Assembly (NCBI GenBank): GCA_049699855.1
Contig: JBNAWM010000041.1
Location: forward strand, 1-12,788
Length of the DNA: 12,788 nt
Source: Candidatus Cryosericum sp.
Lineage (GTDB): Bacteria; Caldisericota; Caldisericia; Cryosericales; Cryosericaceae
Direction: 5' to 3'
The notes under the pieces are model-generated. The model saw only the letters and a list, made by a program, of their open reading frames with translations, was not told where the DNA came from and ran no database searches. The translations under genes were made by a program, and so were the position numbers. Of this stretch, positions 1 to 12,701 are shown piece by piece. Each line of letters begins with the position of its first letter. The stretch's first letter is position 1.

Positions 1-1837
1 ACGCAAAGCGTTCGATGTCTAGACCTGGGAAGAGGTGACTGGTCGTGCCCAGCAATTCGATTTCAGCTCCTTGAGCTCGTCGCAGACAAACTGTCTGAAA
101 CGGGTCAAGGTGAAGAGCGGTTGCTCCGGCAAGCAACTTCCCATCGTTATAGTACGTACCCGGTTCCAGATCGACCATGGTGGGCCGTCCTCCGAGATTT
201 GCCGCGACAACGAACGTACTGCTGTTGGCATCCAAGGTGATGCGCCACGCCTCACCCATCTGCCTCGCTTCGACAAGTGTCTTGGAGGAGACAGGGAACT
301 GTGAGAGATACAGTCTCAGCTGGTCGTCGGAATAGGCTGAAATGTCGTCGGATGTGAAAAGCAGCCCCCCAAGGGCTTGATTGAGCAGAAACAGCGTGTG
401 ACGCTGTTCCTGGGTCAGGCTGTTCCCGGTCGTTCGAAGAATGCTTACATCAGGATCGTTCCAGAATACCGTTCCATTCAAATGCCGTCTGCCAATGGTG
501 TTTCGCAGTGCAGCAACCGTGGACACGCGCTCCCGATAGTGCACTGCAGCAAGGAGGCGGTCCTCCCATTTTGGCGAAACATCTCCGCCGATGCGGCAGA
601 AATCGACCTGGCCAAATGCAGAGCCAAGCGGGACACCACACGCAAGGATCAGGCCCTGTCCGGCAATACTCCGCAGGAATTGCATGGACTCGGACATCAC
701 CTGTCCCCGTGTCATGCCCTCCGGGGGTTTTCGACAGGCTGCGTAGAGAAAGTCCAGCTTGACGAGGTCGAAATGCCATTGGTTCAGAACAAGGTCAAAA
801 ACCTCGGTAAGGTATGACTGGACTGCGGGATTGGAGAAGTCGAGCGAGTAGAAGAAGCCACTCCATCCGGGATTATGTCCAGCCTTCACAAGGGTTCCAT
901 CACCGTTCCTCAGAAACCAGTCTGGATGGTCATGCAGGAGTTCGGACTTCTCTTCGGCGATGAATGGTGCCAGCCACAGGCCGGCTTTGTACCCGCGTTT
1001 ATGGATCTCGTCAGCCAAAGTACCCATGCCACCGGGAAATCTTGAATTTGTCTTCAGCCAGTCTCCCACCGCGTGTTCCCACCCATCATCGATCTGAACG
1101 ACATCGAGAGGGACTCGGTGACTGCTGAGTGCCTCAAGGTTGTGGAGGATGATTTCGGGAGTGATGTCGGTGTAGTAGTTGTACCAGCTTGTCCATCCAG
1201 TCAGAGGCGGGGTTCGAAGGGGAGGAAGTTGAAGAAGGTTGAAGTAGCTGCCAAAGGTATCGGCATCCGTTCCTTCTCCCATGAAGACATCATAGAGGAG
1301 ATACGAGCCCGTGGGCGCAACGCCGCCGCATTCTTTCTGAAGCGTCACTCTGCCGGCGGAAGCCGTGACGGTGACCAGCGTCATGCCCGTCCTTTCCGAC
1401 AGCGAGCCAAACAAGGTCAGGCGATCCGGCTCAGTACGCACATAGCCATACGTCCAGCCGTGGAATCTTCCCGGGAAGCCGGGATTGGTGACAAACTCGT
1501 AGTCGCCGTACATGGAGCACCGCGAGCGGGCCAACCTGTTGAGAGGCGCAATACGCTCTCTTGGGGCCAGTTCGCGAGACTCTGTCCAGGTCTGATAACC
1601 GTTCACGAAAATGCGGCTCGTCGCCGGAATGAGAAGGGGAACTCGTAACTCAGCTGTGAGCAGTTTCACTGGCATTCGAGGTTCCACCGTGATTGTCCAC
1701 CGTTCTCCCGGGCCAGCGGCAGTGACAACGGGCGCAATGACAAGGTCGTCGTTCTGGGATGGTTTGTCGAGGTTGAAATCGATGGTTGCGACAACCCCTT
1801 CCCGCCGGTAGGTGAGTTTTCCGCGCACGTTCTCCAT
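1..1837 (-). CDS. Alpha-galactosidase, glycoside hydrolase family 36 (Thermotoga GalA-like); 3' end lies beyond the left edge of the window (at least 612 codons)
   Basis: Translated by hand. ATG at 1837 follows GGAGG (ACGGAGGATTAGC-ATG), 1 nt after the galK stop. One frame carries FVNGYQTW, GWTSWYNYY, VQIDDGW, GLWLAPF, LVKLDFLY (nucleophile Asp, 752-754), CRIGGD (acid/base Asp) and NDPD, and is still open at the edge (...FPGLDIERFA). Confidence 0.92.
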   Translation of the reverse strand, partial: MENVRGKLTYRREGVVATIDFNLDKPSQNDDLVIAPVVTAAGPGERWTITVEPRMPVKLLTAELRVPLLIPATSRIFVNGYQTWTESRELAPRERIAPLNRLARSRCSMYGDYEFVTNPGFPGRFHGWTYGYVRTEPDRLTLFGSLSERTGMTLVTVTASAGRVTLQKECGGVAPTGSYLLYDVFMGEGTDADTFGSYFNLLQLPPLRTPPLTGWTSWYNYYTDITPEIILHNLEALSSHRVPLDVVQIDDGWEHAVGDWLKTNSRFPGGMGTLADEIHKRGYKAGLWLAPFIAEEKSELLHDHPDWFLRNGDGTLVKAGHNPGWSGFFYSLDFSNPAVQSYLTEVFDLVLNQWHFDLVKLDFLYAACRKPPEGMTRGQVMSESMQFLRSIAGQGLILACGVPLGSAFGQVDFCRIGGDVSPKWEDRLLAAVHYRERVSTVAALRNTIGRRHLNGTVFWNDPDVSILRTTGNSLTQEQRHTLFLLNQALGGLLFTSDDISAYSDDQLRLYLSQFPVSSKTLVEARQMGEAWRITLDANSSTFVVAANLGGRPTMVDLEPGTYYNDGKLLAGATALHLDPFQTVCLRRAQGAEIELLGTTSHLFPGLDIERFA

Positions 1838-1838
1838 G

Positions 1839-3005
1839 CTAATCCTCCGTCTCCACTTCGTGCACGCCGTTTGCCGCGCGTGTCACGTAGAAGGCAGGTT
1901 CGAGGTTGGTCGCCGCAACGTACCCAGCTTGAACCGATACGGTGAAGGCCGGCATCGCTTCCTGGTGGACGAGAGCGATGGCACAACCGCCAAATCCAGC
2001 CCCTGTCATGCGTGCTCCAAGGCATCCCGGTGCTTGAAGTGCTGCGTTCACGATGGCATCAAGATGAGGCCCCGTGACCTCATAGTCATCACGGAGAGAA
2101 ACATGAGATGCCGTCAGAAGCTCGCCGAACGTCTTCAGGTCCCCGTCCGCGAGAACCCGGACCGCCTTGTCTACCCGTGCCTGTTCAGAGATCACGTGGC
2201 GTGCTCTTCGCAGAAGGACAGGATCTGAGACGTGTGCCGTCACCTGACTCCACGAGGCGTGGGCAAGTCCATCGCGGGGTGCTTCGGCTCCAAGCAGTTC
2301 AAGCACGGCGTCACACTCTGCCCTTCGCTCGTTGTACTTCGAATCGGCCAGCTTTCGCTGCCACCGCGTGTCCATGATCGCCAGCACGTAATCCCCCAGC
2401 ACGAGCGGAACGTAGCTGTACTGATGGGAATCACAGTTGAGCACCATGGCATGGTCCTGCCTGCCCAGCGCGACAGCAAACTGGTCCATGATGCCGCAGT
2501 TGACACCGACAAACTGGTTCTCGACCTTTTGTGAGAGGAGGGCAATTGCCGCAAGATCGATGGGCGCATGGCCGGCCAGAGAAAGGAAGGAGAAGGCTGT
2601 CAGCACTTCCATGGCGGCGGATGAGGAAAGGCCGGCCCCCTGGGGCAGGTCGGAGGTAAACAGAACGTCGGCTCCGGGGACATCAATGTTCTGGAGCAGA
2701 AGTTCTCTGATGACTCCAGCTGGATAGTTGCCCCATCCGCGTGCGGGGTCTGGGTCAATGGGCTGGGTCAGGTCGAGGTCCACTGCCAGGGCATCTCCCT
2801 TGGAACGCATGCACACGTGGCGGTCAGAGCGCAAGCGGCACGTAGCGGTGATTCCGAGGTTGACGGCCGCTGGCATGACCAGACCGCCGTTGTAGTCGAT
2901 GTGCTCGCCAATGAGATTGACTCTCCCTGGGGCAAAAAAGGTGCGAAGCGCCCCCGGAGCCCTTCCGTAGGCCTGCTGAAAGGCTTCTTTGATTTCATTC
3001 CGCAT
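1839..3005 (-). CDS. galK: Galactokinase (GHMP kinase), 388 aa
   Basis: Motifs APGRVNLIGEHIDYNGG, PQGAGLSSSA, CGIMDQF, GARMTGAGFGG. Start moved from 3044 to ATG 3005 (MRNEIK), which follows GGAGGAG and lies 2 nt after the galT stop. Confidence 0.96.
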   Translation of the reverse strand: MRNEIKEAFQQAYGRAPGALRTFFAPGRVNLIGEHIDYNGGLVMPAAVNLGITATCRLRSDRHVCMRSKGDALAVDLDLTQPIDPDPARGWGNYPAGVIRELLLQNIDVPGADVLFTSDLPQGAGLSSSAAMEVLTAFSFLSLAGHAPIDLAAIALLSQKVENQFVGVNCGIMDQFAVALGRQDHAMVLNCDSHQYSYVPLVLGDYVLAIMDTRWQRKLADSKYNERRAECDAVLELLGAEAPRDGLAHASWSQVTAHVSDPVLLRRARHVISEQARVDKAVRVLADGDLKTFGELLTASHVSLRDDYEVTGPHLDAIVNAALQAPGCLGARMTGAGFGGCAIALVHQEAMPAFTVSVQAGYVAATNLEPAFYVTRAANGVHEVETED

Positions 3006-3007
3006 GG

Positions 3008-3997
3008 CTATGGCTCCTCCTGCATCTGCGCAAACCTTTGACAAGCGTCAGCAAGGGCAGGCGCCGTCTCTTCTACCCGCACGGGGTTGGCCGCTGCCCA
3101 GGCTCCCATCTCGGAGGAAGCATAGTACTTGACGGTTGTGGCGTTGCGCAGCGGAGGATAGAACTCAATGTGGAAGTGATAGTATTGGTCGCAGCCGGCA
3201 TCCTCAGGGCTGTTTACAGGAGCTTGATGGATGCACATCATGTAGGGGAAGCGACGATTGAACAAGAGATCGAAGCCCCCGGTGAGTGTCTTCAGGATGC
3301 GGGCCAGGTCGGTTTGTTCCGAGGCCGTGAAGTCCATGAACGACTGCTTATGGGCACGGCTGGTCACGAACACGCCATAGGGGTAATCCGTGAATGAGGG
3401 AATGAACGCTACAAAACTCTCATTCGAGAGGATGATGCGGCGGCCGTCCGACAGTTCGTTCGCGGTCAAGTCGCAGAAAAGGCAGCTTCCGTGCTCATCG
3501 TGCCAAGCACGGGCGCTGTCAAGCTCGGTCCGTATCTTGAGAGGGACATATGGGTAGGCATAGATCTGGCCGTGAGGATGCAGCATGGTCACGCCAACTT
3601 CCTCTCCACGGTTTTCAAATGGGAAGATGTACTTGATGCGAGGGTCGGCAGCAAGGACACGCTGGCGCTCAGTCCACAGTTCGACAAGACGCGTGATGTG
3701 GGCAATGCTCAGGTCATGCAGACTGGCATTGTGATCGGAGGAATACAGGATTACCTCGCATTTGCCATAGTTGGGAGCGACAGGAGAAAGCTCGGTACCC
3801 ACGGGATCCGGAGGCCCTGGGTCGAGTGTCAGCGCCGGAAAATCGTTGTCGTACTCCAGGACGTCATAGGCATCAGGCACCCTTCCCGATCCCGGACAGA
3901 AAGGACAGCCATCGACCCGTAGATTTGGTCGAGCCTGCCTGTTACTGGCCACCATTGTCCACGTACGAAGAAGCGGGTTCCATCGCAATTCTGCCAT
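3008..3997 (-). CDS. galT: Galactose-1-phosphate uridylyltransferase (class I), 329 aa
   Basis: ELRWNPL, CPFCPG zinc motif, NDFPAL, FENRGEEVG, active-site HPHGQ, YHFHIEFYPP; RBS AGGAGG upstream. Confidence 0.96.
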   Translation of the reverse strand: MAELRWNPLLRTWTMVASNRQARPNLRVDGCPFCPGSGRVPDAYDVLEYDNDFPALTLDPGPPDPVGTELSPVAPNYGKCEVILYSSDHNASLHDLSIAHITRLVELWTERQRVLAADPRIKYIFPFENRGEEVGVTMLHPHGQIYAYPYVPLKIRTELDSARAWHDEHGSCLFCDLTANELSDGRRIILSNESFVAFIPSFTDYPYGVFVTSRAHKQSFMDFTASEQTDLARILKTLTGGFDLLFNRRFPYMMCIHQAPVNSPEDAGCDQYYHFHIEFYPPLRNATTVKYYASSEMGAWAAANPVRVEETAPALADACQRFAQMQEEP

Positions 3998-4046
3998 TGT
4001 TTTCCTCCTGTTGTCCTGCCGTGCGCCTTCTAAGACTCCATGCTGC

Positions 4047-4075
4047 AGTATAGCCCAACCGCTTCATTCGTACAG
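4047..4075 (-). promoter_or_regulatory. Possible sigma70-type promoter for galT-galK-GH36
   Basis: TATACT on the minus strand (4047-4052) about 50 nt before the galT ATG; the hexamer 17 bp upstream (CTGTAC) is a poor -35. Confidence 0.35.
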
Positions 4076-4091
4076 CTTCGGCGGTCTTGTC

Positions 4092-4120
4092 TTGTTCAGA
4101 CGGTATGGGCGGACTATACT
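4092..4120 (+). promoter_or_regulatory. Predicted sigma70-type promoter for galE
   Basis: TTGTTC (4092-4097) - 17 bp - TATACT (4115-4120); GGAGG at 4152-4156. Confidence 0.55.
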
Positions 4121-4161
4121 CAATGTGTATCATGACAACTGCTGAAGGGCTGGAGGTACTG

Positions 4162-5145
4162 ATGAACGGAACAGTTCTAGTGACAGGCGGGGCGGGGTAC
4201 ATTGGGTCGCATACAGTGCGGAGATTGTTGCACAACGGGTATCAGGTTGCGGTGCTGGACAATCTCTCGAAGGGGCACCGATGGGCGGTTCCGGCTGACG
4301 TGTCGCTCATTGTCGGCGATATTGCCGACACTGCCCAGGTCGCCATGACGATCAGGCAGTTGCATGTGACAAGCGTCATTCATTTTGCGGCGTTCAGTCT
4401 GGTGGGCGAGTCCATGATCGAACCGCGCGCGTACTATGCCAACAATGTTGCAGGCACACTGCATCTGCTTGATGCTCTGCGCGTGGCAGGGGTGGACAGG
4501 ATTGTCTTCTCAAGCTCGGCGGCTGTCTACGGAGAGCCCGCCAGGGTTCCAATTGATGAAGACAGCCCGCTCACACCGACAAGCGTCTACGGCCGCACGA
4601 AGATGGTCATCGAAGGAATCCTGCACGATTACGCGGTTGCTTACGGTCTCCGCTCTGTCTCGTTAAGATACTTCAATGCTGCCGGGGCTGACTCGCAAGG
4701 TGGCATCGGTGAGGACCATGATCCGGAGACGCACCTGATACCACTGGTTCTTCAGGCCGCAGCAGGCCGCAGGCCATCCGTGAGCATCTATGGAGATGAT
4801 TACCCGACCAGCGACGGCACCTGCATTCGCGACTACATCCATGTAAACGATCTTGCGGATGCACACATCCTCGCCCTGGAGTCGCTCGAGCGACAGGTCG
4901 AGGCAACCTACAACCTTGGGAACGGCGAAGGGTTCTCGGTGAAGCAGATTGTCGAAACTGCCCAGCGTGTTACAGGCCGAGAAATCCCTGTTGTTCATGC
5001 GCCACGCCGTGCTGGAGACCCCGCCGTCCTGGTGGCGAGCAATGCCCGAGCCCGTCGCGAGCTGGGATGGGCGCCCCAGTTGACCGACCTTGAGGCCATT
5101 GTACAGACAGCCTGGGATTGGGAGCTCCATCGACCCATCTCTTAG
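4162..5145 (+). CDS. galE: UDP-glucose 4-epimerase, 327 aa
   Basis: TGGAGYIG Rossmann motif, HFAA, VGES, FSSSAAVYG, YGRTK (YxxxK), LRYFNAAGA, RDYIHV. Start set at ATG 4162 after GGAGG rather than TTG 4087. Confidence 0.96.
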   Translation: MNGTVLVTGGAGYIGSHTVRRLLHNGYQVAVLDNLSKGHRWAVPADVSLIVGDIADTAQVAMTIRQLHVTSVIHFAAFSLVGESMIEPRAYYANNVAGTLHLLDALRVAGVDRIVFSSSAAVYGEPARVPIDEDSPLTPTSVYGRTKMVIEGILHDYAVAYGLRSVSLRYFNAAGADSQGGIGEDHDPETHLIPLVLQAAAGRRPSVSIYGDDYPTSDGTCIRDYIHVNDLADAHILALESLERQVEATYNLGNGEGFSVKQIVETAQRVTGREIPVVHAPRRAGDPAVLVASNARARRELGWAPQLTDLEAIVQTAWDWELHRPIS

Positions 5146-5262: not shown

Positions 5263-6879
5263 ATGCGCGGGCAGTACGTCTCCTTAGCCATGAATCTCGT
5301 CATCGGCCTCTCCTTCTTCCTGTACGGCATGAAACTGCTTGGGGATGGGCTTCAGAAGGCGGCTGGAGACTCGCTCAGGCGCATCCTTCAGACTCTCACC
5401 AACAAACCCATCCGTGGTGTCGTTGTCGGCATGATCGTCACTGCGATCATTCAAAGCAGCAGCGCTACCACCGTGATGATTGTTGGTTTTGCGAATGCTG
5501 GGCTCATGACCTTGAGGCAAGCCATGGGCGTCATCTTTGGAGCCAACATAGGCACGACGATCACCGCCCAGATTATCGTGCTCAAGCTGGACAAGTTTGT
5601 GTGGCTCTTCATGCTGGTGGGCGTCATGATGGAGTTTTTCGTGAAGCGCAAGACCAGCAAGGCAGTGGGCGAAGCCATCCTTGGCTTTGGCATCCTGTTC
5701 TTTGGTCTATATTTCATGGCGGACACCCTTGCACCACTCAGAGACAATCAGAGCTTCATCAACTTCCTCGTGCGTTTCGGACAAGTTCCCGTTCTGGGTG
5801 TCGGTGCCGGAGCGGTCTTTACCGCAGTTATCCAGAGTTCCTCGGTAACCACCAGCCTGGTTGTTGCGCTCGCCATGAAGGGCATGATTACGTTGCCCTC
5901 AGCCATTGCGCTGGTCCTGGGCGCCAATATCGGAACGACCGTTACTGCGGCAATCGCCAGTCTCGGGGGCAATATTACCAGCAAACGGGCCGCCCTCACC
6001 CATTTCCTGTTCAACACGATGGGTACCGTTCTCATGTTTCCCTTTCTCAAGCCGTTTGCCAAGCTTGTGGAGCTGACAGCATCGACACTGCCGCACCAGG
6101 TGGCCAATGCGCACACAATCTTCAACGTTCTTATGACAGCTGTTGCTCTTGTTTTTATCAGTCCATTCGAGAAACTGGTCGTCCATCTTCTGCCCTCCAG
6201 TGAAAAGCAGATCGAGACCAGGGTGGTTCAGTTCATCGATGATCGGGTGCTTGTGACTCCGTCAGTTGCTCTTTCGCAGGCGACGCAGGAGCTCTATCGC
6301 ATGGGCCACATTGCATATGAGATGGTCGACAACTGCAGAACTGCCCTCTTTCAGAACCGCATGAGCCTGTTGGAGAATGTTCTTGGGAACGAGGATCTGG
6401 TGAACTCGATGCAGAGGGAGATTACCGGATACCTCACGAAGATCACAGAGCACGATCTCTCCGAGGCGCAGGGTACCCGTGTCATGGCCTTGATGCATGC
6501 AGTCAATGACATCGAACGAGTGGGCGACCACGCAACCAACCTCGTGGAGCTCATTCAGATCAAGGACGACAAGAGGCTTAAATTCAATACGGCGACACAG
6601 GAAGACCTGAAGGAAGAGTTCGATCACGTTCTGAAGACGCTGGATGAGGCCATGGATGCGCTCAGGGACTACGATGTCGAGCGAGCCCACCGGGTCAAGG
6701 AAATGGAAGACCGCTGCGACTTGATGACGAAGGAATGCATGTCCCGCAACATTGCCCGGCTCAATGCGCACGAAGTGGACCCTCAAGTGGGTGTCGTTGT
6801 CGTCGACCTGTTCACCAACCTCGAGCGCATCTCAGACCACTCTGACAACATCGCCGACGTCGTTCTGGGCGTGTACTAG
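5263..6879 (+). CDS. Na+/phosphate cotransporter family protein (NptA/YjbB-like) with C-terminal PhoU domains, 538 aa
   Basis: Two internal repeats each with QSSS and GANIGTT; hydrophobic N-terminal ~310 aa; soluble C-terminus with PhoU-type DIERVGDHATNL and LERISDHSDNIA. Confidence 0.93.
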   Translation: MRGQYVSLAMNLVIGLSFFLYGMKLLGDGLQKAAGDSLRRILQTLTNKPIRGVVVGMIVTAIIQSSSATTVMIVGFANAGLMTLRQAMGVIFGANIGTTITAQIIVLKLDKFVWLFMLVGVMMEFFVKRKTSKAVGEAILGFGILFFGLYFMADTLAPLRDNQSFINFLVRFGQVPVLGVGAGAVFTAVIQSSSVTTSLVVALAMKGMITLPSAIALVLGANIGTTVTAAIASLGGNITSKRAALTHFLFNTMGTVLMFPFLKPFAKLVELTASTLPHQVANAHTIFNVLMTAVALVFISPFEKLVVHLLPSSEKQIETRVVQFIDDRVLVTPSVALSQATQELYRMGHIAYEMVDNCRTALFQNRMSLLENVLGNEDLVNSMQREITGYLTKITEHDLSEAQGTRVMALMHAVNDIERVGDHATNLVELIQIKDDKRLKFNTATQEDLKEEFDHVLKTLDEAMDALRDYDVERAHRVKEMEDRCDLMTKECMSRNIARLNAHEVDPQVGVVVVDLFTNLERISDHSDNIADVVLGVY

Positions 6880-6940: not shown

Positions 6941-7810
6941 CTATGTCGTGTTGTTTCCGGGAGAGAGCGTCATTGCCCGCAGGTCCTTTGCATTCTGAAC
7001 CGCCTGACCACGATGGCAGTTGTTGGTCATGATGAACATCAGCGGAGCATGTGAAGCCATCGTCTGAATGGCAGGCAGTATCTGCTCGAGTTCCTGGCGG
7101 GAATAAAGGTAGTCATACCGCTCTTCACGACTGGCACCAAACCAGTGTGGATTGCGTCCATGCAGTCTTAGATAGGCGACGTCGCTGGTTACGGCAGGGA
7201 CCAGGGGCAGGAGATTGCGCAGCTGCGGTTCGTCGACGGCAACATAGCCCAGATGTTCCTGCCTGAGAAAAGTCAGGGCATTGTTTTCATGCCAGCTTTG
7301 GTCGCGAAACTCGATGGAGAGAGAAAGGCGGGGCAGCAGGTCGCGTGTCACGAGGAGAAGTCTGCGATTCTCAGGCGTGTCGTGAAACCAAGGCGGGTAC
7401 TGCAGAACGACCGTTCCAAGGCGGCCGGCATCGGCCATGGGAGCGACAGCCTCCCAGAATGCCATAAAGGATGGTGCCAGCTGTGCCGTGGTCTTGAGCC
7501 CCTGCTTCAGATCAGGAAAAGAAGGTCCTCCGGAGGAGGCCGGCTTCATGACATTCCAGATGTCGTGTGTCATGCTTCTGTGTGCTTTCACGGTAAAGAG
7601 AAAGCCTGGCGGCGTCTTCTGCATGAGCGCCTGGACCAGTGGAACCGTAGGCATGTGATAGAAACTGCTGTCCAGTTCAACTGCCGTGAAACCCAGGGTG
7701 CGCGCATAGTAGACAAGATAGAGCGATGGGCGCAGGTTGGGTGGGTAAACAGTGCCTCTCCAGTCGGGAAATGAGTATCCGCAGGTGCCAATGCGCAGAT
7801 CTGTATTCAT
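6941..7810 (-). CDS. DUF72 (YecE/YunF-like) TIM-barrel protein, 289 aa
   Basis: IGTCGYSFPDWRG..YP, VELDSSFY, FTVKA, LQYPPWF, EFRDQSW, VDEP, YLRLHGRN, RYDYLYS..EL, NNCHRGQAVQNA. ATG overlaps the upstream TGA (ATGA, 7807-7810); RBS AGAGGAG. Confidence 0.92.
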   Translation of the reverse strand: MNTDLRIGTCGYSFPDWRGTVYPPNLRPSLYLVYYARTLGFTAVELDSSFYHMPTVPLVQALMQKTPPGFLFTVKAHRSMTHDIWNVMKPASSGGPSFPDLKQGLKTTAQLAPSFMAFWEAVAPMADAGRLGTVVLQYPPWFHDTPENRRLLLVTRDLLPRLSLSIEFRDQSWHENNALTFLRQEHLGYVAVDEPQLRNLLPLVPAVTSDVAYLRLHGRNPHWFGASREERYDYLYSRQELEQILPAIQTMASHAPLMFIMTNNCHRGQAVQNAKDLRAMTLSPGNNTT

Positions 7811-8586
7811 AGCGATAGCTCCTCTCCTGGCTCCTCTGCCACCAGTCCAGGTGGCTCCTCTGCCAGTCTACCATCAACCAGCGAATAATGGAGAACAGTT
7901 TCACGCTCAGGTGGCGCAAGCTTGTTCTTGACGACATGTACACGAATAGCGAAAGAGGTTGGATCTCCTTCGTCCAGGCTCAGCTGTTCCTGTGTCATTT
8001 TCAGGCGCAATGAGGCAAAACTGCGCAGAGCTCCCCCGCCGATGGACGCGACTGAACCAGGAACAGCCATCAGATAACTGCGGCTGAGAAAAAGCATGAC
8101 GCAGTTGCGGCGGGCAACCAGTGTTGTGAGTTTTCGCAGTGCACGGCCAACCATCTCGGCACGTGCCATATTGAGCGGGGTGCCTTCGGGCCGGTGCGAT
8201 GGATTCATGGCGATTGCCGAATCCATGACGAGGAGATCGATGCTGGCACGTTCCAGAAGGATGACAGCCATGTCGACAGCATCTTCTGCTGTTTCCGGCT
8301 CGAGCAGCAGGATATCTTGTGCCGACGGGCCAAGGTTCTGTGGAAGTTTGGCTGTCAGGCTGTGTTCCAAGTCGATCCAGACGACAGTCAGCCCCAGGGC
8401 TGCTGCATTCAGACAGCAGGCCACTGCAAGAGCAGACTTGCCTGAACTGGCTGTTCCAAACAACTCAGTGATGCGCCCGCGCGGATACCCACCGATGCCC
8501 GTTATCCGGTCTATCGAGGAGATACCGCTTCCAAGGACGGCTACGGGTGCAGTGAATTGTTGCTGAATGCTTTTAAGCATATTCAT
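7807..8586 (-). CDS. Truncated RecA paralog / ImuA-like RecA-fold ATPase (~257-259 aa)
   Basis: GIGGYPRGRITELFG, Walker A GTASSGKS, WIDLEHSL, Walker B LLVMDS, ALRKL, GGGALRSFASLRL, VVKNKLAPP. No RecA C-terminal domain. Start probably ATG 8586 or 8580, overlapping the dnaE2 stop; the 8685 start adds out-of-frame dnaE2 sequence. Confidence 0.85.
   Translation of the reverse strand: MNMLKSIQQQFTAPVAVLGSGISSIDRITGIGGYPRGRITELFGTASSGKSALAVACCLNAAALGLTVVWIDLEHSLTAKLPQNLGPSAQDILLLEPETAEDAVDMAVILLERASIDLLVMDSAIAMNPSHRPEGTPLNMARAEMVGRALRKLTTLVARRNCVMLFLSRSYLMAVPGSVASIGGGALRSFASLRLKMTQEQLSLDEGDPTSFAIRVHVVKNKLAPPERETVLHYSLVDGRLAEEPPGLVAEEPGEELSL
7828..7865. repeat. 14-bp direct repeat TGGCTCCTCTGCCA at 7828-7841 and 7852-7865 (24-bp period)
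   Basis: Read directly from the sequence; encodes the two AEEP units in the acidic tail of the RecA paralog. Confidence 0.8.
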
Positions 8587-11500
8587 AGAAAAGGGGCGCA
8601 TCCTTGGCACCCGGAACAAACTGCAGGCCATCCAGCCGCTTGACGATGACCGTGGGACTCCCCTCGGCATTCTGAAGTTCGCCATACAGGCGCATCATGC
8701 TGTTTTGCTTGAGCGCCGCCGCATACTTGCGCTGGACGTCCTCAAACATGACCGCTTCTATCATGCCGTCTTCATCCTCCAGGGTGATAAAGAATACCCG
8801 CTTGCCGGATTTGGTCGGAGGAGTCTGGATACGGACAACAACCCCTCGCACCCACACGTTTGAACCGTGTGGCCACGAGGTCAACTGGACACTGTGCAGG
8901 GCAGGCGCGCGCATCTGCACGGGCGTTGGTTCATTGGCAGTCTTGACAGCAGCCAGGTCCAGCAGGACAGCCAGGCTTGTTGATACAGGATAGCCTATGC
9001 CGGATATCTCTCCCAGGACAGCACGCAATTGCAGGTTGGGAGAGGCACTCAGAATGCGGTCGATCTCGCTGGGTTCCAGCCCAAGTTCATCAGCGACGGC
9101 CAGAGGAGTTCCAAGGTCGTCGAATGCCCCAGCCAGCACGAGGCGTTGAAGCGCCCGTTTATTGACATGCGTCCGCTTCAGGAAATCGGTGGCTGAGTCA
9201 AAGGGGTGTTTCTCTCGCGCAGCCACAATGGAATCAGCATCCTTTGCCGAAAGGCTGCTGAAGGTGTTCAGCCCGAGTTTCAGTACCATGCCATGCGCGG
9301 TCGTTCGGACCATACTGCGTGTTACCAGCGGCTTTTCGACCAGAACGTGGCAGCGGCGCGCTTCATCCAGCAAGATGAACGGAGGATAGAACCCCACGGG
9401 CATCGCGTTGAGCAGTCCCGCAATGTAGTGAGCCGGCCAGTGTGCCTTGAGATAGGCAGTGCGGTAGGCCAGCAATCCAAACGAAGCGGCATGCCCTTTG
9501 TTGAATCCGTAGCTGGCAAAGCTCTGGAGCTGGCTGTAAATGCGCCGGGCAGTTTCCGGGGTGGTGCCTTTGGCAGCAGCTCGCTCCAGGAAGAGCTTTT
9601 CAAATCGAGCAAGGTCAGCCTTGGGGGTGTGCTCTGTCATGGCACGCCGGAGGACATCCGCTTCTGCGAATGATAAATCGGCGACTGCATTGGCAACTTG
9701 CAGAACCTGCTCTTGGAAAACGATAATGCCATAGGTCTCATTCAGAATCGGCTCCAGGCGCGGATCCTCGAATGTCACTGGGGCTGTTCCATTTCTTCTG
9801 GCCAGATACAGCTTGTCCATGTTCATGGCCATGGGACCCGGGCGGAACAGCGAAACGTTTGCCATGATATCGGCATAACAGGTGGGCTGCAGCTTGAGCA
9901 AAAGGTTCCGCATCCCTGGCGATTCCAGCTGGAACACACCAAGCGTGCGGGCCTCACGTAACAGGCGATATGTCGACCGGTCGTCCATGGGGATAGTCGA
10001 AAGGCTGATCTCAGCACCTGTTTCGGCTTGTACCATCGCTGTTGCATCTACTGCGGCGGACAGCGTACGCAATCCCAGCAAGTCCATCTTGACCAGGCCC
10101 AATCGCTCTACGTCGTCTTTGTCATACTGTGTCATAAGGTGACCCGTTCCAGATGGTTCAAGAGGAACAAGGTCAGTGAGTGGAAAAGGGGCGATGACCA
10201 GTCCTGCAAGATGTGTGGACAGGGTTCGCGGGAGCCCTCGTATGCGTTCAGCCAGGGAGACCCATCTCTCTATACTGCCATAGGGAAATGTGGCCAGTTC
10301 CGGCAATTTGGCGATGACCTCAGTGATGCGGTGGTGGCTGTACCAGGGCAGAAGACGGGTGGCGTCATCAATTTCCTCCCGGCTGTATCCCAGCGCTCCT
10401 CCGACATCACGAAAAGCTCCACGGATGTTGTATGTGTTGACGTTGGCTACACGGCAGACCCTGTCTTCACCATAAACGTTGAATAATTCGGACACGACCT
10501 CATCACGGCGTAGTGCATCAAAGTCAATGTCGACATCTGGCAGACTTTGCCGCCCCTCATTGAGAAAGCGCTCGAACAGCAGGTTATGCCGAAGTGGATC
10601 GACCTGCGTAGCATCGATACAGTAACAGACGATGGAATTGGCGCCCGAACCACGTCCGGAGTAGGCAATTCCTTTGCGCCGCGCTATCTCGATGATGTCG
10701 CGTACGATAAGGAAGTACTCATCCATGTGCATATGCCGGATGGTGCCCAGCTCATGCTCGATACGCTCTGCTACAGTGGCAGTAATGGTGCCATATTTCT
10801 CCCGGGCTCCGGCATAGACGATATCGTGGAGACTGCGCGTTGCTGTCAGTATCGAACTGGGAGTCTTGAAACCATGCAAAGGCAACTCCACCCGACATTG
10901 GGCGGCGACGTCTCCGCTGACGGCCAGTGCTTCAGGCCAATCTGCAAACAGTTCAGCCATCTCATCGGCTCCCCTGAACCAGTTTTCAGCATTGACATGT
11001 TGTGTCTGCCGACTGCGGGTGTCGACATCTTCCAGCGAACCAATGGCCAGGAGCATCTCACGAACTTCTGCATCGACACGGCGCAAATGGGTAACGCCCC
11101 CAGTGGCGCAGGCGGGAACGCCGGTTTCGTCAGACAACTGATGCATACGGTACAGGAGACGCGTCGAATCGGGAAACATGGGATTCTGAACGTCCAGGTA
11201 CAAATTGTTGGAGAAAAGTGCGCGCATTTTTTCCAGGAGAAGGCGTGCCTTATGCAGATGGCGCGTTGACAGGAACTGATAAAGCAGACTTTCGGGACTG
11301 CCATACAATGCGACAAGGTGTTCAGCATATGGCGCAAGCTGCTCGGGCGTCAGTCCTGGATGCACCCGGCCGCGTGCCTGGGCAATAGTCACCAGACGGC
11401 AGAGGTTGCTGTAGCCCTCCAGGTCGCGCGCAAGAACAACAATGCGGTCCTCCGTTTCATTGTCAAGCAGTGTCAACTCACAGCCGAAGATGGGAACAAT

Positions 11501-11674
11501 TCCAGCAGAGCGCGCTGCATGGTCGAAGCGGATGGCGCCGGCGAGGGTGTTCCTGTCGGTGATGGCGCAGAAGGAGTAGCCCAGCTCGCGACTGCGCTGT
11601 ACCAGGTCTTCAATGCGGATCGAACTTTCATGGAAGCTGAAGCCCGTATGAAGATGCAAATGGACGAAAGACAT
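8573..11674 (-). CDS. dnaE2: C-family DNA polymerase alpha subunit, error-prone DnaE2 (ImuC) type, 1033 aa
   Basis: PHP start HLHLH/TDR/GCE; GRGSGANSIVCYC, LLFERFL, catalytic PDVDID and KMDLLGL, VFQLESPG, HAASF, MPVGFYPP (DnaE2-type), OB-fold QTPPTKSG..FFITLEDEDG; no tau-binding C-terminal domain; lies in a lexA operon. Confidence 0.88.
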   Translation of the reverse strand: MSFVHLHLHTGFSFHESSIRIEDLVQRSRELGYSFCAITDRNTLAGAIRFDHAARSAGIVPIFGCELTLLDNETEDRIVVLARDLEGYSNLCRLVTIAQARGRVHPGLTPEQLAPYAEHLVALYGSPESLLYQFLSTRHLHKARLLLEKMRALFSNNLYLDVQNPMFPDSTRLLYRMHQLSDETGVPACATGGVTHLRRVDAEVREMLLAIGSLEDVDTRSRQTQHVNAENWFRGADEMAELFADWPEALAVSGDVAAQCRVELPLHGFKTPSSILTATRSLHDIVYAGAREKYGTITATVAERIEHELGTIRHMHMDEYFLIVRDIIEIARRKGIAYSGRGSGANSIVCYCIDATQVDPLRHNLLFERFLNEGRQSLPDVDIDFDALRRDEVVSELFNVYGEDRVCRVANVNTYNIRGAFRDVGGALGYSREEIDDATRLLPWYSHHRITEVIAKLPELATFPYGSIERWVSLAERIRGLPRTLSTHLAGLVIAPFPLTDLVPLEPSGTGHLMTQYDKDDVERLGLVKMDLLGLRTLSAAVDATAMVQAETGAEISLSTIPMDDRSTYRLLREARTLGVFQLESPGMRNLLLKLQPTCYADIMANVSLFRPGPMAMNMDKLYLARRNGTAPVTFEDPRLEPILNETYGIIVFQEQVLQVANAVADLSFAEADVLRRAMTEHTPKADLARFEKLFLERAAAKGTTPETARRIYSQLQSFASYGFNKGHAASFGLLAYRTAYLKAHWPAHYIAGLLNAMPVGFYPPFILLDEARRCHVLVEKPLVTRSMVRTTAHGMVLKLGLNTFSSLSAKDADSIVAAREKHPFDSATDFLKRTHVNKRALQRLVLAGAFDDLGTPLAVADELGLEPSEIDRILSASPNLQLRAVLGEISGIGYPVSTSLAVLLDLAAVKTANEPTPVQMRAPALHSVQLTSWPHGSNVWVRGVVVRIQTPPTKSGKRVFFITLEDEDGMIEAVMFEDVQRKYAAALKQNSMMRLYGELQNAEGSPTVIVKRLDGLQFVPGAKDAPLFYEYA

Positions 11675-11698
11675 ATCGCATCACTCATCGTGTTCGTA

Positions 11699-11977
11699 TC
11701 AATCCATCAGGCGAATCATATACCAGTGTCGATGAACATTGTCTCTTGCAACGGTCGCTATCATCTTGTCATCGCTCATGATCGTGTAGTAGGTGGCATC
11801 CTCCGTATGGTCAGAGGTAAACTGTCCGCTGGCCCACATCTTGAGGATGCGATCGACATGTTTGACTTCACCACGGAACACAAAAGCGGAAAGGTGACCG
11901 TTTCGTTCTTCCACGTAAAGCAGTGGCAGCTTTTCGGACAACGTCATGGAGGTTGGCAAATCGGACAGGGAGTTCAT
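11699..11977 (-). CDS. Small stand-alone ImuB C-terminal-domain-like (DUF6504-like) protein, 92 aa
   Basis: ATG 11977 follows GAGAAGG, 10 nt after the lexA TGA. G..SAFVFRGEVKHVDRILKMW...YYTIMSDD...VARD...HWYMIRLMD fits the F-x-[WF]-R-G..V...W / YY / W..D-stop pattern recalled for ImuB-C/DUF6504; it fills the lexA-dnaE2 gap. Confidence 0.75.
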   Translation of the reverse strand: MNSLSDLPTSMTLSEKLPLLYVEERNGHLSAFVFRGEVKHVDRILKMWASGQFTSDHTEDATYYTIMSDDKMIATVARDNVHRHWYMIRLMD

Positions 11978-11987
11978 GCGTGCCTTC

Positions 11988-12578
11988 TCAGGAAAGGCGT
12001 TCACGAACAAGGCCGACAACTTTGCCAATAATGGTGACTTCATTGGTGACGGGGATGGGGTGGTACGCAGGATTGGCTGGCATGAGAAAGATGCCGTCTC
12101 CCCCCTGGTGCAGTTTTTTGACGGTCGCCTCGTCTCCAAAGAGAGCGACAACAATGTCTCCGTTGTCTGCCGTTTGCTGTTTGTGGACAATAACGATGTC
12201 TCCCGGCACAATATGTTCATTGATCATGGAGTCCCCCTTGACCTTGAGGCCAAAATAATCGGCTGTTGCAGAGGTGGGAGGAGTAACAAAGATCCACTTC
12301 TCGATATTCTCCTCGGCCAGAATGGGCGTGCCTGCAGCAACAGTGCCCAGGACCGGGATCATCAGCGATGGAGTGGCCGGTGTTCCCTTGATAAGGTCCG
12401 GCTGAGGAAGATATCCCTTGCGTTCGAGCGTCTTGACATAGACGACGACCGAATTGAGCGAGTTGAATCCAAAGTGGCGCCGCACATCTTCCAGACTGGG
12501 ACGGAATCCTGTCTGGCGCGCGCGCGCCTCGATGAATTCCAGAACGGCTTGCTGCTTGCTGGTCAACTCTTCCATCAT
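11988..12578 (-). CDS. lexA: LexA repressor, 195-196 aa (start 12578 or, better spaced from the RBS, 12575)
   Basis: LTSKQQAVLEFI..PS..LERKGY HTH domain; IPVLGTVAAG-TP Ala-Gly cleavage site; catalytic Ser in GDSM and Lys in ATVKK; GGAGG RBS. Confidence 0.95.
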   Translation of the reverse strand: MMEELTSKQQAVLEFIEARARQTGFRPSLEDVRRHFGFNSLNSVVVYVKTLERKGYLPQPDLIKGTPATPSLMIPVLGTVAAGTPILAEENIEKWIFVTPPTSATADYFGLKVKGDSMINEHIVPGDIVIVHKQQTADNGDIVVALFGDEATVKKLHQGGDGIFLMPANPAYHPIPVTNEVTIIGKVVGLVRERLS

Positions 12579-12589
12579 CTGCCTCCATG

Positions 12590-12625
12590 GTAGTGTAGTT
12601 ACTACAACTGTAGTGTATACACTAT
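12590..12625. promoter_or_regulatory. Two 16-bp palindromic sites (RTAGT-N6-ACTAY), putative LexA operators
   Basis: GTAGT-GTAGTT-ACTAC at 12590-12605 and GTAGT-GTATAC-ACTAT at 12610-12625 (contains perfect 14-bp palindrome TAGTGTATACACTA, 12611-12624), 20-bp period, overlapping the predicted -10 and start site. Confidence 0.7.
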
Positions 12626-12640
12626 TTCATAGAAATGCAA
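12612..12640 (-). promoter_or_regulatory. Predicted sigma70-type promoter of the lexA operon
   Basis: Minus strand TTGCAT (12640-12635) - 17 bp - TACACT (12617-12612) in an AT-rich patch. Confidence 0.65.
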
Positions 12641-12663: not shown

Positions 12664-12701
12664 GATAAACAATGCTGTTAGGCTGCGCAGCCTGACAGCA
12701 T
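12664..12701 (-). terminator. Probable intrinsic terminator upstream of the lexA promoter
   Basis: Minus strand ATGCTGTCAGGCT-GCGC-AGCCTAACAGCAT (12701-12672; 13-bp stem, one mismatch) followed by TGTTTAT, about 25 nt after a TAG at 12726-12728. Confidence 0.65.

Follow-up and report, generated by a model that had tools for sequence, protein, structure and literature searches.

A compact operon on a 12,788-base contig of Candidatus Cryosericum, from the Caldisericota, encodes LexA, a stand-alone ImuB-C protein, a DnaE2 polymerase, a dedicated RecA paralog and a DUF72 protein. The pairing of DnaE2 with ImuB-C in the absence of ImuB is already known, and the new part of this cassette is the dedicated RecA paralog that occurs without the usual Y-family tether. 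We give an even chance to the reading that DnaE2, ImuB-C and the paralog constitute a three-protein polymerase and that the paralog additionally holds back the RecA filament, DUF72 being co-induced but separate. The contig (C41) was analyzed in its entirety and is called the window below. Its source assembly (G000) has a size of 1.63 Mb, is divided among 157 contigs and is 97.9% complete.

All five genes reside on the minus strand, in the order lexA (11988..12578; 196 amino acids), imuB-C (11699..11977; 92 amino acids), dnaE2 (8573..11674; 1033 amino acids), the gene for the RecA paralog (7807..8586; ~259 amino acids) and the gene for the DUF72 TIM-barrel protein (6941..7810; 289 amino acids). 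Gaps of 10 and 24 nucleotides separate the first three genes. The start of the paralog gene overlaps the end of dnaE2 by 14 or 8 nucleotides, depending on which ATG (8586 or 8580) is used, and the paralog and DUF72 genes share the four nucleotides ATGA. These coordinates agree with the co-oriented arrangement and spacings that had been described in an earlier note on this DNA. Proteins closely related to those of the cassette carry the names Candidatus Cryosericum or Caldisericota.

The cassette polymerase is a DnaE2

Domain matches and tree placement identify the cassette polymerase as a DnaE2. The protein carries PHP, palm, finger, helix-hairpin-helix (HhH) and OB domains, the last of which ends at residue 1013 of 1033 and is followed by a variable tail, such that the C-terminal tau-binding domain (CTD) is missing. 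The catalytic residues are invariant, with Asp380, Asp382 and Asp531 retained in the segments PDVDID (at 379) and KMDLL (at 529), and several PHP metal ligands are replaced relative to the DnaE1 of the host. Kept catalytic aspartates, lost PHP metal ligands and the lack of a CTD are features described for DnaE2 proteins (PMC3919608). The linker that follows the HhH domain is short and is devoid of the QLSL-like motifs present in several relatives, and no conserved QxxLF-like clamp motif is evident in DnaE2, ImuB-C or the paralog.

In trees built with FastTree, using local support and our own group labels, the cassette polymerase groups with DnaE2 proteins from ImuB-C-adjacent and other loci, apart from DnaE1 proteins, with a support of 100. 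Nine of the 29 loci intended for these trees from our scan were dropped by a motif filter, and seven were restored later; among the matches listed when the collection was scanned with the DnaE alignment, most are DnaE1 loci. Within the DnaE2 group, the protein emerges on a long stem (1.09) from a basal polytomy of 33 rows, outside the sampled DnaE2A, Streptomyces/actinobacterial and iPolY clades (Arthrobacter was not sampled). Its nearest relatives beyond the genus are ~40% identical, derive from ImuB-C-adjacent loci, include proteins of Bacillota and Actinomycetota, and are in some instances annotated as error-prone polymerases. The single other DnaE of G000, on contig C5, groups with Caldisericia and other DnaE1 proteins, and a full-length RecA is encoded on contig C1, so the canonical counterparts for which the earlier note had advised searching are both present. 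The cassette DnaE2 is likely to be error-prone and damage-inducible.

A diverged ImuB-C protein is encoded upstream of dnaE2

The 92-residue open reading frame (ORF) has no Pfam match at an E value of 0.05, and its identification relies on a custom profile made from 33 stand-alone ImuB-C proteins of dnaE2/PolY loci. When searched against a six-frame translation of G000, this profile yields the 92-residue ORF as its only significant match (E 2.2e-7, with the next at 0.97), and it also matches 15 of 15 orthologues, 11 of which are matched by Pfam DUF6504 below its cut-off. Profile comparison with ImuB-C by hhalign gives an E value of 3.7e-5 and a probability of 71, and the Atlas lead for the protein is likewise DUF6504 (0.89). 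Residues F32, W85 and D92 show no variation across the 37 rows of the alignment, and the predicted model has five strands and one helix (predicted local distance difference test, pLDDT, 69.6). Stand-alone ImuB-C proteins are described as having a conserved C-terminal tryptophan and a mainly beta structure (PMC3765255), and W85 and the mainly beta model correspond to these features.

These matches identify the protein as a diverged ImuB-C, which agrees with the proposal in the earlier note that the small gene encodes the C-terminal module of ImuB. A fold search with the model returned a best Z score of 6.3, with nothing above background. An alignment of the protein searched against 1.84 billion representatives gave five matches, all close relatives, and this profile is too narrow to reach ImuB-C.

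No Y-family protein is found in the genome

Pfam PF00817 has no match in G000, while 11 of 14 control genomes give one. An IMS_C match (E 0.099) was examined and rejected, as the protein is a histidine kinase and not a Y-family member. Pfam is insufficient for detecting iPolY proteins, as evident by the iPolY of a Limnochordales DnaE2 cassette (L072) that has zero Pfam matches. DUF6504 was therefore sampled in 201 genomes from each of two phyla, of which 54 and 33 have a match, and 20 cassette PolY/iPolY proteins that adjoin ImuB-C were taken to make a custom profile. In searches of genome size, this profile finds 12 of 12 left-out members again at E <1e-29, and the strongest match that it gives in G000 has an E value of 0.097. 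A similar 20-row PolY alignment produced no real match among 23 genomes of the genus, giving only two matches of 31-32 residues in frames of 872 amino acids. IMS is found in one of the 23 genus genomes versus 15 of 18 other genomes of the class, and the sole genus gene (in G018) encodes an unlinked 510-residue polymerase with a YolD-like neighbor.

Thus, neither ImuB, with its inactive Y-family body, clamp motif and RecA-NT, nor iPolY/ImuY is found in the cassette or in G000 by PF00817 or by the custom profile, as the earlier note had surmised of the Y-family scaffold. A profile of RecA N-termini matched only RecA in G000, yet it missed the RecA-NT of control iPolYs and is uninformative on a hidden tether. 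We see little probability that the cassette belongs to a conventional mutasome with an inactive Y-family scaffold that is missing from the assembly or has diverged beyond detection. The L072 protein demonstrates that a cassette iPolY can escape Pfam, and such concealment would fit the long branches of the cassette proteins in this lineage (stems of 1.09 and 1.79) and an assembly in 157 contigs. However, the custom profile that recovers every left-out member finds nothing in G000 or, convincingly, in the 23 genus genomes, and no second copy of the operator predicted upstream of lexA (see below) precedes an unknown gene.

The RecA paralog is ImuA-like in build

The product of the fourth gene matches PF00154 (E 1.6e-42) and is 31-38% identical to RecA, but scores 141.6 against the recA equivalog family TIGR02012, whose cut-off is 325.3. 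Its score with the ImuA family NF033429 is 22.1 bits versus a cut-off of 150. Alignment with canonical RecA proteins reveals that the paralog keeps Walker A (GTASSGKS), the catalytic glutamate (DLEH), Walker B (MDS) and KNK, although Walker A varies in two diverged members. The hallmarks of a canonical RecA are not found: the N-terminal helix and strand that form the protomer-linking polymerization arm are missing, as is the C-terminal domain, loops L1 and L2 are shorter by ~3 and ~5 residues, and the glutamine of INQ is lost. Over 19 orthologues, column conservation is 0.86-0.94 for the ATPase motifs and the altered L2 and ~0.5 for the termini. The strand and helix that would receive an arm are conserved at 0.76, which is no higher than the average of 0.75. 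The predicted model has a pLDDT of 68.

Within RecA, the paralogs come together in a single clade, the stem of which is 1.79. The earlier note had regarded the gene as a RecA duplicate, but an approximately unbiased (AU) test rejects the grouping of the paralog with host RecA (p 0.018), subject to a long-branch caveat. A clade of the paralogs with two ImuA proteins is not rejected (p 0.19), with the same caveat and with no ImuA3 in the tree. By these sequence comparisons the paralog is ImuA-like in build, and it likely fills the role of an ImuA-like ATPase subunit. A complex prediction with the DnaE2 PHP domain (residues 1-272), ImuB-C (14-92) and the paralog (8-248), in which the paralog was treated as the partner, gave run scores of 0.76, 0.65 and 0.42. 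Two controls with a replaced partner gave 0.00, and one in which the PHP domain was replaced and ImuB-C was kept gave 0.56. The verdict on this prediction was ‘no answer’, and we use it as evidence neither way.

The cassette is conserved and dnaE2 and the paralog share a fate

The five-gene order is contiguous in nine of 16 relatives examined, and the other seven match it as far as the end of the contig, without any gene being inserted. Conservation of gene order, which the earlier note had suggested should be checked, therefore extends to 16 of 16 relatives as far as the contigs reach. The ratio of nonsynonymous to synonymous substitution (dN/dS) is 0.03-0.16 for all five genes in 21 of 25 comparisons with unsaturated dS, where synonymous distances are 0.7-3.1. 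Purifying selection thus acts on all five genes, and their arrangement is not due to chance. 

These values bear on whether the operon is a decaying, non-working remnant of an iPolY-ImuB-C-DnaE2 cassette. Deletions or frame breaks are present in G006, G019, G022, G018:C34 and G001, and the WW and clamp motifs have been lost, as might be expected of a remnant. Strong purifying selection on every gene over such long distances and the invariance of the catalytic residues argue to the contrary, and we consider decay to be very improbable indeed.

Within the genus, dnaE2 is present at 66-87% identity in 17 of 23 genomes, imuB-C in 18 and the RecA paralog in 16, whereas other genomes of the class have none (0 of 18 for dnaE2, and 0 of 61 for each of the other two). 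The paralog is found in 16 of the 17 genomes that carry dnaE2, and in the remaining one (G016) the locus is truncated where the contig ends. The six genomes that lack dnaE2 also lack an intact paralog, in three instances through deletions that are visible in place. In G006 and G022, lexA and imuB-C are kept while dnaE2 and the paralog are gone, with DUF72 truncated in the former and retained in the latter. Only a stub of the paralog, followed by an intact DUF72 gene, remains in G019, and one copy in G018 breaks off 19 codons into dnaE2. The opposite is seen in G001, where dnaE2 and the paralog gene are intact and the neighboring DUF72 gene is split in two; DUF72 is likewise split at one of two G013 loci. 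Thus, dnaE2 and the paralog share a fate, and DUF72 does not.

Two additional observations concern unusual arrangements. In a database protein of 138 amino acids (P0017), residues 1-62 of ImuB-C are followed by the C-terminal portion of the paralog, which represents either a dnaE2 deletion or an assembly chimera. In genome G018 (L015, L214, L215, L064), lexA is present twice, imuB-C is matched three times and a PolY-YolD pair occurs as well; this genome may be a mixed bin or one with two cassettes.

Pairs of imuB-C and dnaE2 occur without the paralog in other phyla

Among 28 dnaE2 loci from other phyla, none has a RecA or paralog gene within the fetched 5-15 kb. Six of the 28 carry imuB-C and dnaE2 with no adjacent PolY gene (unlinked PolY genes were not searched for in their genomes). 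The loci L258-L262, L069 and L278 place such pairs beyond the published actinobacterial group, in the phyla of G084 and G085. On a Rubrobacter plasmid, lexA is divergent from imuB-C-dnaE, with no annotated PolY gene within 5 kb. Published work describes solo ImuB-C proteins that accompany DnaE2, whether or not an inactive DinB is present (PMC3765255), and a fifth group of DnaE2B, with Arthrobacter alpinus as its example and confined to Actinobacteria, that is linked only to ImuB-C (PMC12926913). Therefore, of the statement in the earlier note that the Y-family protein is unusually absent, the absence holds and the novelty does not.

Because none of the outside loci carries the paralog, it is not generally needed for ImuB-C-dnaE2 pairs. 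This fact, together with the published group linked to ImuB-C alone, favors a different arrangement, in which the known two-part DnaE2-ImuB-C polymerase operates by itself and the paralog is a separate co-regulated modulator of RecA filaments or LexA cleavage that never touches DnaE2. No Y-family tether has been found that might hold the paralog, and an ImuA can act on RecA directly, as reported for M. xanthus, where RecA1 is bound by ImuA and inhibited as a recombinase (bioRxiv 10.1101/2020.12.14.422803). However, the paralog gene overlaps the dnaE2 stop codon, occurs intact only with dnaE2 (16 of 17 genomes with it versus 0 of 6 without) and is lost with dnaE2 while DUF72 stays. We find this arrangement doubtful, although as the main alternative it retains a fair share of plausibility, and we prefer the three-protein polymerase.

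DUF72 is probably not a subunit

The DUF72 protein (PF01904, E 3e-54) is close to Thermotoga TM1631 (1vpq, E 2.3e-54). Outside the genus, 26 of 61 genomes of the class encode a homologue and have no such cassette, and homologues are also present in three of the 28 outside dnaE2 stretches, always on the opposite strand. The earlier note had proposed DUF72 as an added subunit. This proposal does not hold up well, since DUF72 is kept without dnaE2 and the paralog in G019 and G022 and is broken beside both in G001. Because it is kept or broken independently of dnaE2, DUF72 is probably not a subunit, and it is likely to be a co-induced repair enzyme resembling a UV endonuclease.

A stronger role would be given to this protein by an excision-and-refill module, in which DUF72 incises, the paralog serves as an ATPase or unwinding factor, DnaE2 fills the gap and mutagenesis is a side effect. 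The DUF72 TIM barrel is close to UV-damage endonuclease and the family is enriched near polB2 mutasome operons (PMC11791011), M. smegmatis ImuA has been reported to be a helicase-nuclease (bioRxiv 10.64898/2026.08.14.744951), and DnaE2 has been linked to excision repair in non-replicating cells (PMC8102061). The overlap-type coupling of the DUF72 gene is also conserved. We nevertheless deem such a module unlikely, given the independent loss and retention of DUF72 noted above, its presence in many genomes of the class that have no cassette, and the fact that no DUF72 nuclease activity was found in the literature covered.

Several DUF72 orthologues (in L032-L040 and L213) end in a QAMLLF-like (Q-x-M-x-L-F-like) stretch that resembles a clamp-binding motif, and the corresponding end in G000 reads RAMTLS. 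This stretch may be only a helix end. In most relatives, a gene in the same direction lies ~36-60 nucleotides 3′ of DUF72 (L032:3623-4393, L033:3461-4231, L034:9850-10620, L038:3776-4555). From sequence motifs, we take this gene to be Sir2-like, and it may extend the operon. G000 has no Sir2-like gene at the locus, nor is one found genome-wide by tblastn.

LexA and its predicted operator

The first gene of the operon is the only lexA in G000. Its product scores 171 bits with TIGR00498, over the cut-off, has a helix-turn-helix and an S24 domain, and retains the Ala82-Gly83 cleavage site as well as Ser117 and Lys154. Upstream of lexA, a predicted −35 hexamer (TTGCAT, 12635..12640, minus strand) is separated by a 17-nucleotide spacer from a predicted −10 hexamer (TACACT, 12617-12612). 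A perfect 14-base-pair palindrome, TAGTGTATACACTA (12611..12624), overlaps the predicted −10 hexamer, is largely conserved upstream of lexA in relatives and is single-copy in G000 even when two mismatches are allowed. The predicted LexA operator (12601..12614) reads ACTACA-NN-TGTAGT, with the core CTAC-N4-GTAG, and was recognized by its conservation upstream of lexA. This core is perfect in 10 of 13 upstream regions, has one mismatch in two, and is TTAC-N4-GTAA in the most diverged one; it is also perfect at three further loci.

The earlier note had predicted one promoter with palindromic sites. A conserved operator-like palindrome unique to the lexA promoter indeed exists, and TTGCA is present in 13 of 13 lexA upstream regions. 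The promoter itself is deduced from these two features, as a consensus scanner made no call upstream of lexA.

The complete operator 14-mer is single-copy in G000, and the other three CTAC-N4-GTAG sites of this genome fall inside ORFs. Twelve other loci with this core in relatives include four that precede a gene for a BlaI/CopY-type repressor and three that represent one intergenic site between unrelated genes, with the rest being in or near unrelated ORFs. A genome-wide SOS regulon with this box is therefore not supported. The simplest reading of these sequences is a self-contained LexA switch on its own operon.

The operator also fits the TACA-NN-TGTA box of BlaI/CopY repressors. This family is found in eight of the 23 genus genomes and not in G000, where the operator thus has no such owner. 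In some relatives (L282, L284, L285, L287), BlaI/MecI/CopY-family repressor genes are preceded by CTACAGTTGTAG, which is the same 12-mer as in the predicted LexA operator of G000. Cross-talk between LexA and BlaI/CopY is possible, on the strength of this similarity, in the eight genomes that carry the family. 

The LexA proteins of other Caldisericia families (L229-L257) are 34-43% identical to that of the genus, and a GTTCG half-site, which we take to be the Gram-positive type of LexA box, is found upstream of lexA in 13 of 16 of their loci. Therefore, the genus would have a different LexA or one with shifted specificity.

Chromosomal surroundings

The GC content of the cassette (0.51-0.59) is similar to that of its flanks. 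The contig ends 210 bases upstream of lexA, and a stem-loop of 13 pairs (12672..12701) located upstream of the promoter is likely the terminator of a gene beyond the contig end. Relatives have a hairpin-like sequence with other letters at a similar place. At the opposite boundary, outside the cassette, a convergent Na+/Pi cotransporter gene (5263..6879, plus strand) is present, as it is in relatives. The upstream hairpin and convergent gene reported in the earlier note were thus both located. Positions 2-5145 of the window contain galE divergent from galT-galK-alpha-galactosidase. Because galactose utilization genes flank the cassette both here and in relatives, the cassette occupies a stable chromosomal site.

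Proposed mechanism

For the three-protein polymerase, we envision the following sequence of events. LexA would bind CTAC-N4-GTAG over the −10 region and repress its own operon, which is apparently its sole strong target. Upon damage, a filament of canonical RecA would trigger LexA self-cleavage, as in the standard SOS mechanism for which the required residues are present, and the operon would be expressed. DnaE2, whose sequence reveals neither proofreading nor tau-binding capacity, should polymerize DNA, and because it could neither proofread nor bind tau it would extend primers across lesions or gaps with errors. ImuB-C may dock on the PHP domain of DnaE2, in keeping with published models in which ImuB-C packs on this domain and contributes to ImuA binding (PMC12926913).

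The weakest steps concern the paralog, which without an arm should be unable to extend a filament but keeps an arm-receiving surface and an ATP site. Held on ImuB-C and DnaE2, the paralog might accept the free arm of the end RecA protomer, damp recombination and admit DnaE2. Since no Y-family scaffold gene was found in the genome, the RecA-like subunit would be recruited by a route unlike that of known mutasomes. Synthesis would be short-patch and, because no clamp motif is evident in any of the three proteins, largely clamp-independent.

A number of observations count against this mechanism. The G-x-W-W loop motif of the ImuB-C family is replaced in the 92-residue protein, and pairs of imuB-C and dnaE2 exist in outside lineages with no paralog nearby. 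Mycobacterial ImuB critically requires its RecA-NT motif to bind ImuA', mutagenesis requires its clamp motif, and ImuB-C only stabilizes the ImuA' complex (PMC11791113); the RecA-NT and clamp motifs of ImuB are both missing here. No operator of the lexA type precedes canonical recA in G000. Because dnaE2 and the paralog gene are adjacent, their being lost together is in part unavoidable, and the genomes compared are related to one another. Six of 23 genomes, including two that are 94-96% complete (G004 and G019), have the operon lost or deleted. Finally, all genomes are incomplete draft assemblies, and some gene breaks may be assembly errors.

If the components are considered jointly, a larger claim can be formulated, which we regard as possible but, as a whole, somewhat improbable. 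The cassette would represent a further mutasome architecture beyond the 11 module types that have been catalogued (PMC12926913), composed of DnaE2, ImuB-C and a RecA paralog with no Y-family protein. The paralog would be an independently derived, ATP-competent ImuA-like subunit. Anchored on the barrel of ImuB-C and the PHP domain of DnaE2, it would cap the filament of host RecA by accepting that filament's free N-terminal arm, and it would deliver a clamp-independent polymerase. This would be the only translesion system of nearly the whole genus, under a LexA with its own CTAC-N4-GTAG box.

The function of ImuA and the dependence of DnaE2 on ImuB are open questions on which the cassette bears. 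In characterized mutasomes, a Y-family protein is the hub, providing both the clamp motif and the RecA-NT that tethers RecA or ImuA. Because this genus keeps DnaE2, ImuB-C and an ImuA-like ATPase under strong selection without the hub, it offers a natural deletion experiment. With three small proteins, one could distinguish between an action of ImuA-like subunits on the polymerase and one on the RecA filament, and learn whether DnaE2 can work without a clamp adaptor. The cassette further contributes a candidate SOS box and connects DUF72 once more with polymerases that are inducible by damage. The system is found in one genus known from draft assemblies, and the interactions among its subunits are putative.

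Comparison with known systems

We propose that the cassette works like an ImuABC or DnaE2X mutasome while being a member of neither class, because the Y-family component of these systems was tested for and not found. The literature covered, which includes few subscription papers and leaves bioRxiv supplements outside, yielded no paper on this locus or on a RecA paralog in a PolY-free dnaE2 cassette, and the available supplement of PMC12926913 names Caldisericum, not Cryosericum.

The PolB2-PPB2-iRadA mutasome (PMC11791011) similarly has no Y-family protein and unites, within a single operon, a polymerase, a small accessory protein and a truncated paralog of a recombinase, and lexA and DUF72 are enriched nearby. 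However, it uses a B-family polymerase, an unrelated helical small protein and an inactive RadA bound via a polymerase motif, making this resemblance one of analogy and not homology.

The ImuA-ImuB-DnaE2 (DnaE2A) systems, especially those with the ImuA3 of Myxococcus xanthus, share with this cassette an arm-less RecA-like protein that has Walker A and B and whose gene lies next to dnaE2 under LexA control; the ImuA3 group is described as keeping both Walker motifs (PMC12926913). Unlike those systems, the cassette lacks the polymerase-like body, RecA-NT tether and clamp motif of ImuB. Furthermore, its paralog is encoded after dnaE2 and is much closer to RecA than to ImuA, and its DnaE2 falls outside the sampled DnaE2A clade.

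[quoted passage not shown] The present cassette differs by the absence of iPolY/ImuY and by the RecA paralog located inside the operon. Operons with stand-alone ImuB-C, and the genomes that carry them, are reported to have no imuA (PMC6511836).

Also among the closest known systems is the DnaE2-[ImuB-C] module (PMC12926913, PMC3765255), where DnaE2 is likewise encoded beside a stand-alone ImuB-C with no Y-family partner. In contrast to that module, the cassette belongs to the Caldisericota, its DnaE2 does not group with the sampled actinobacterial DnaE2 proteins, and it is accompanied by lexA, a dedicated RecA paralog and DUF72.

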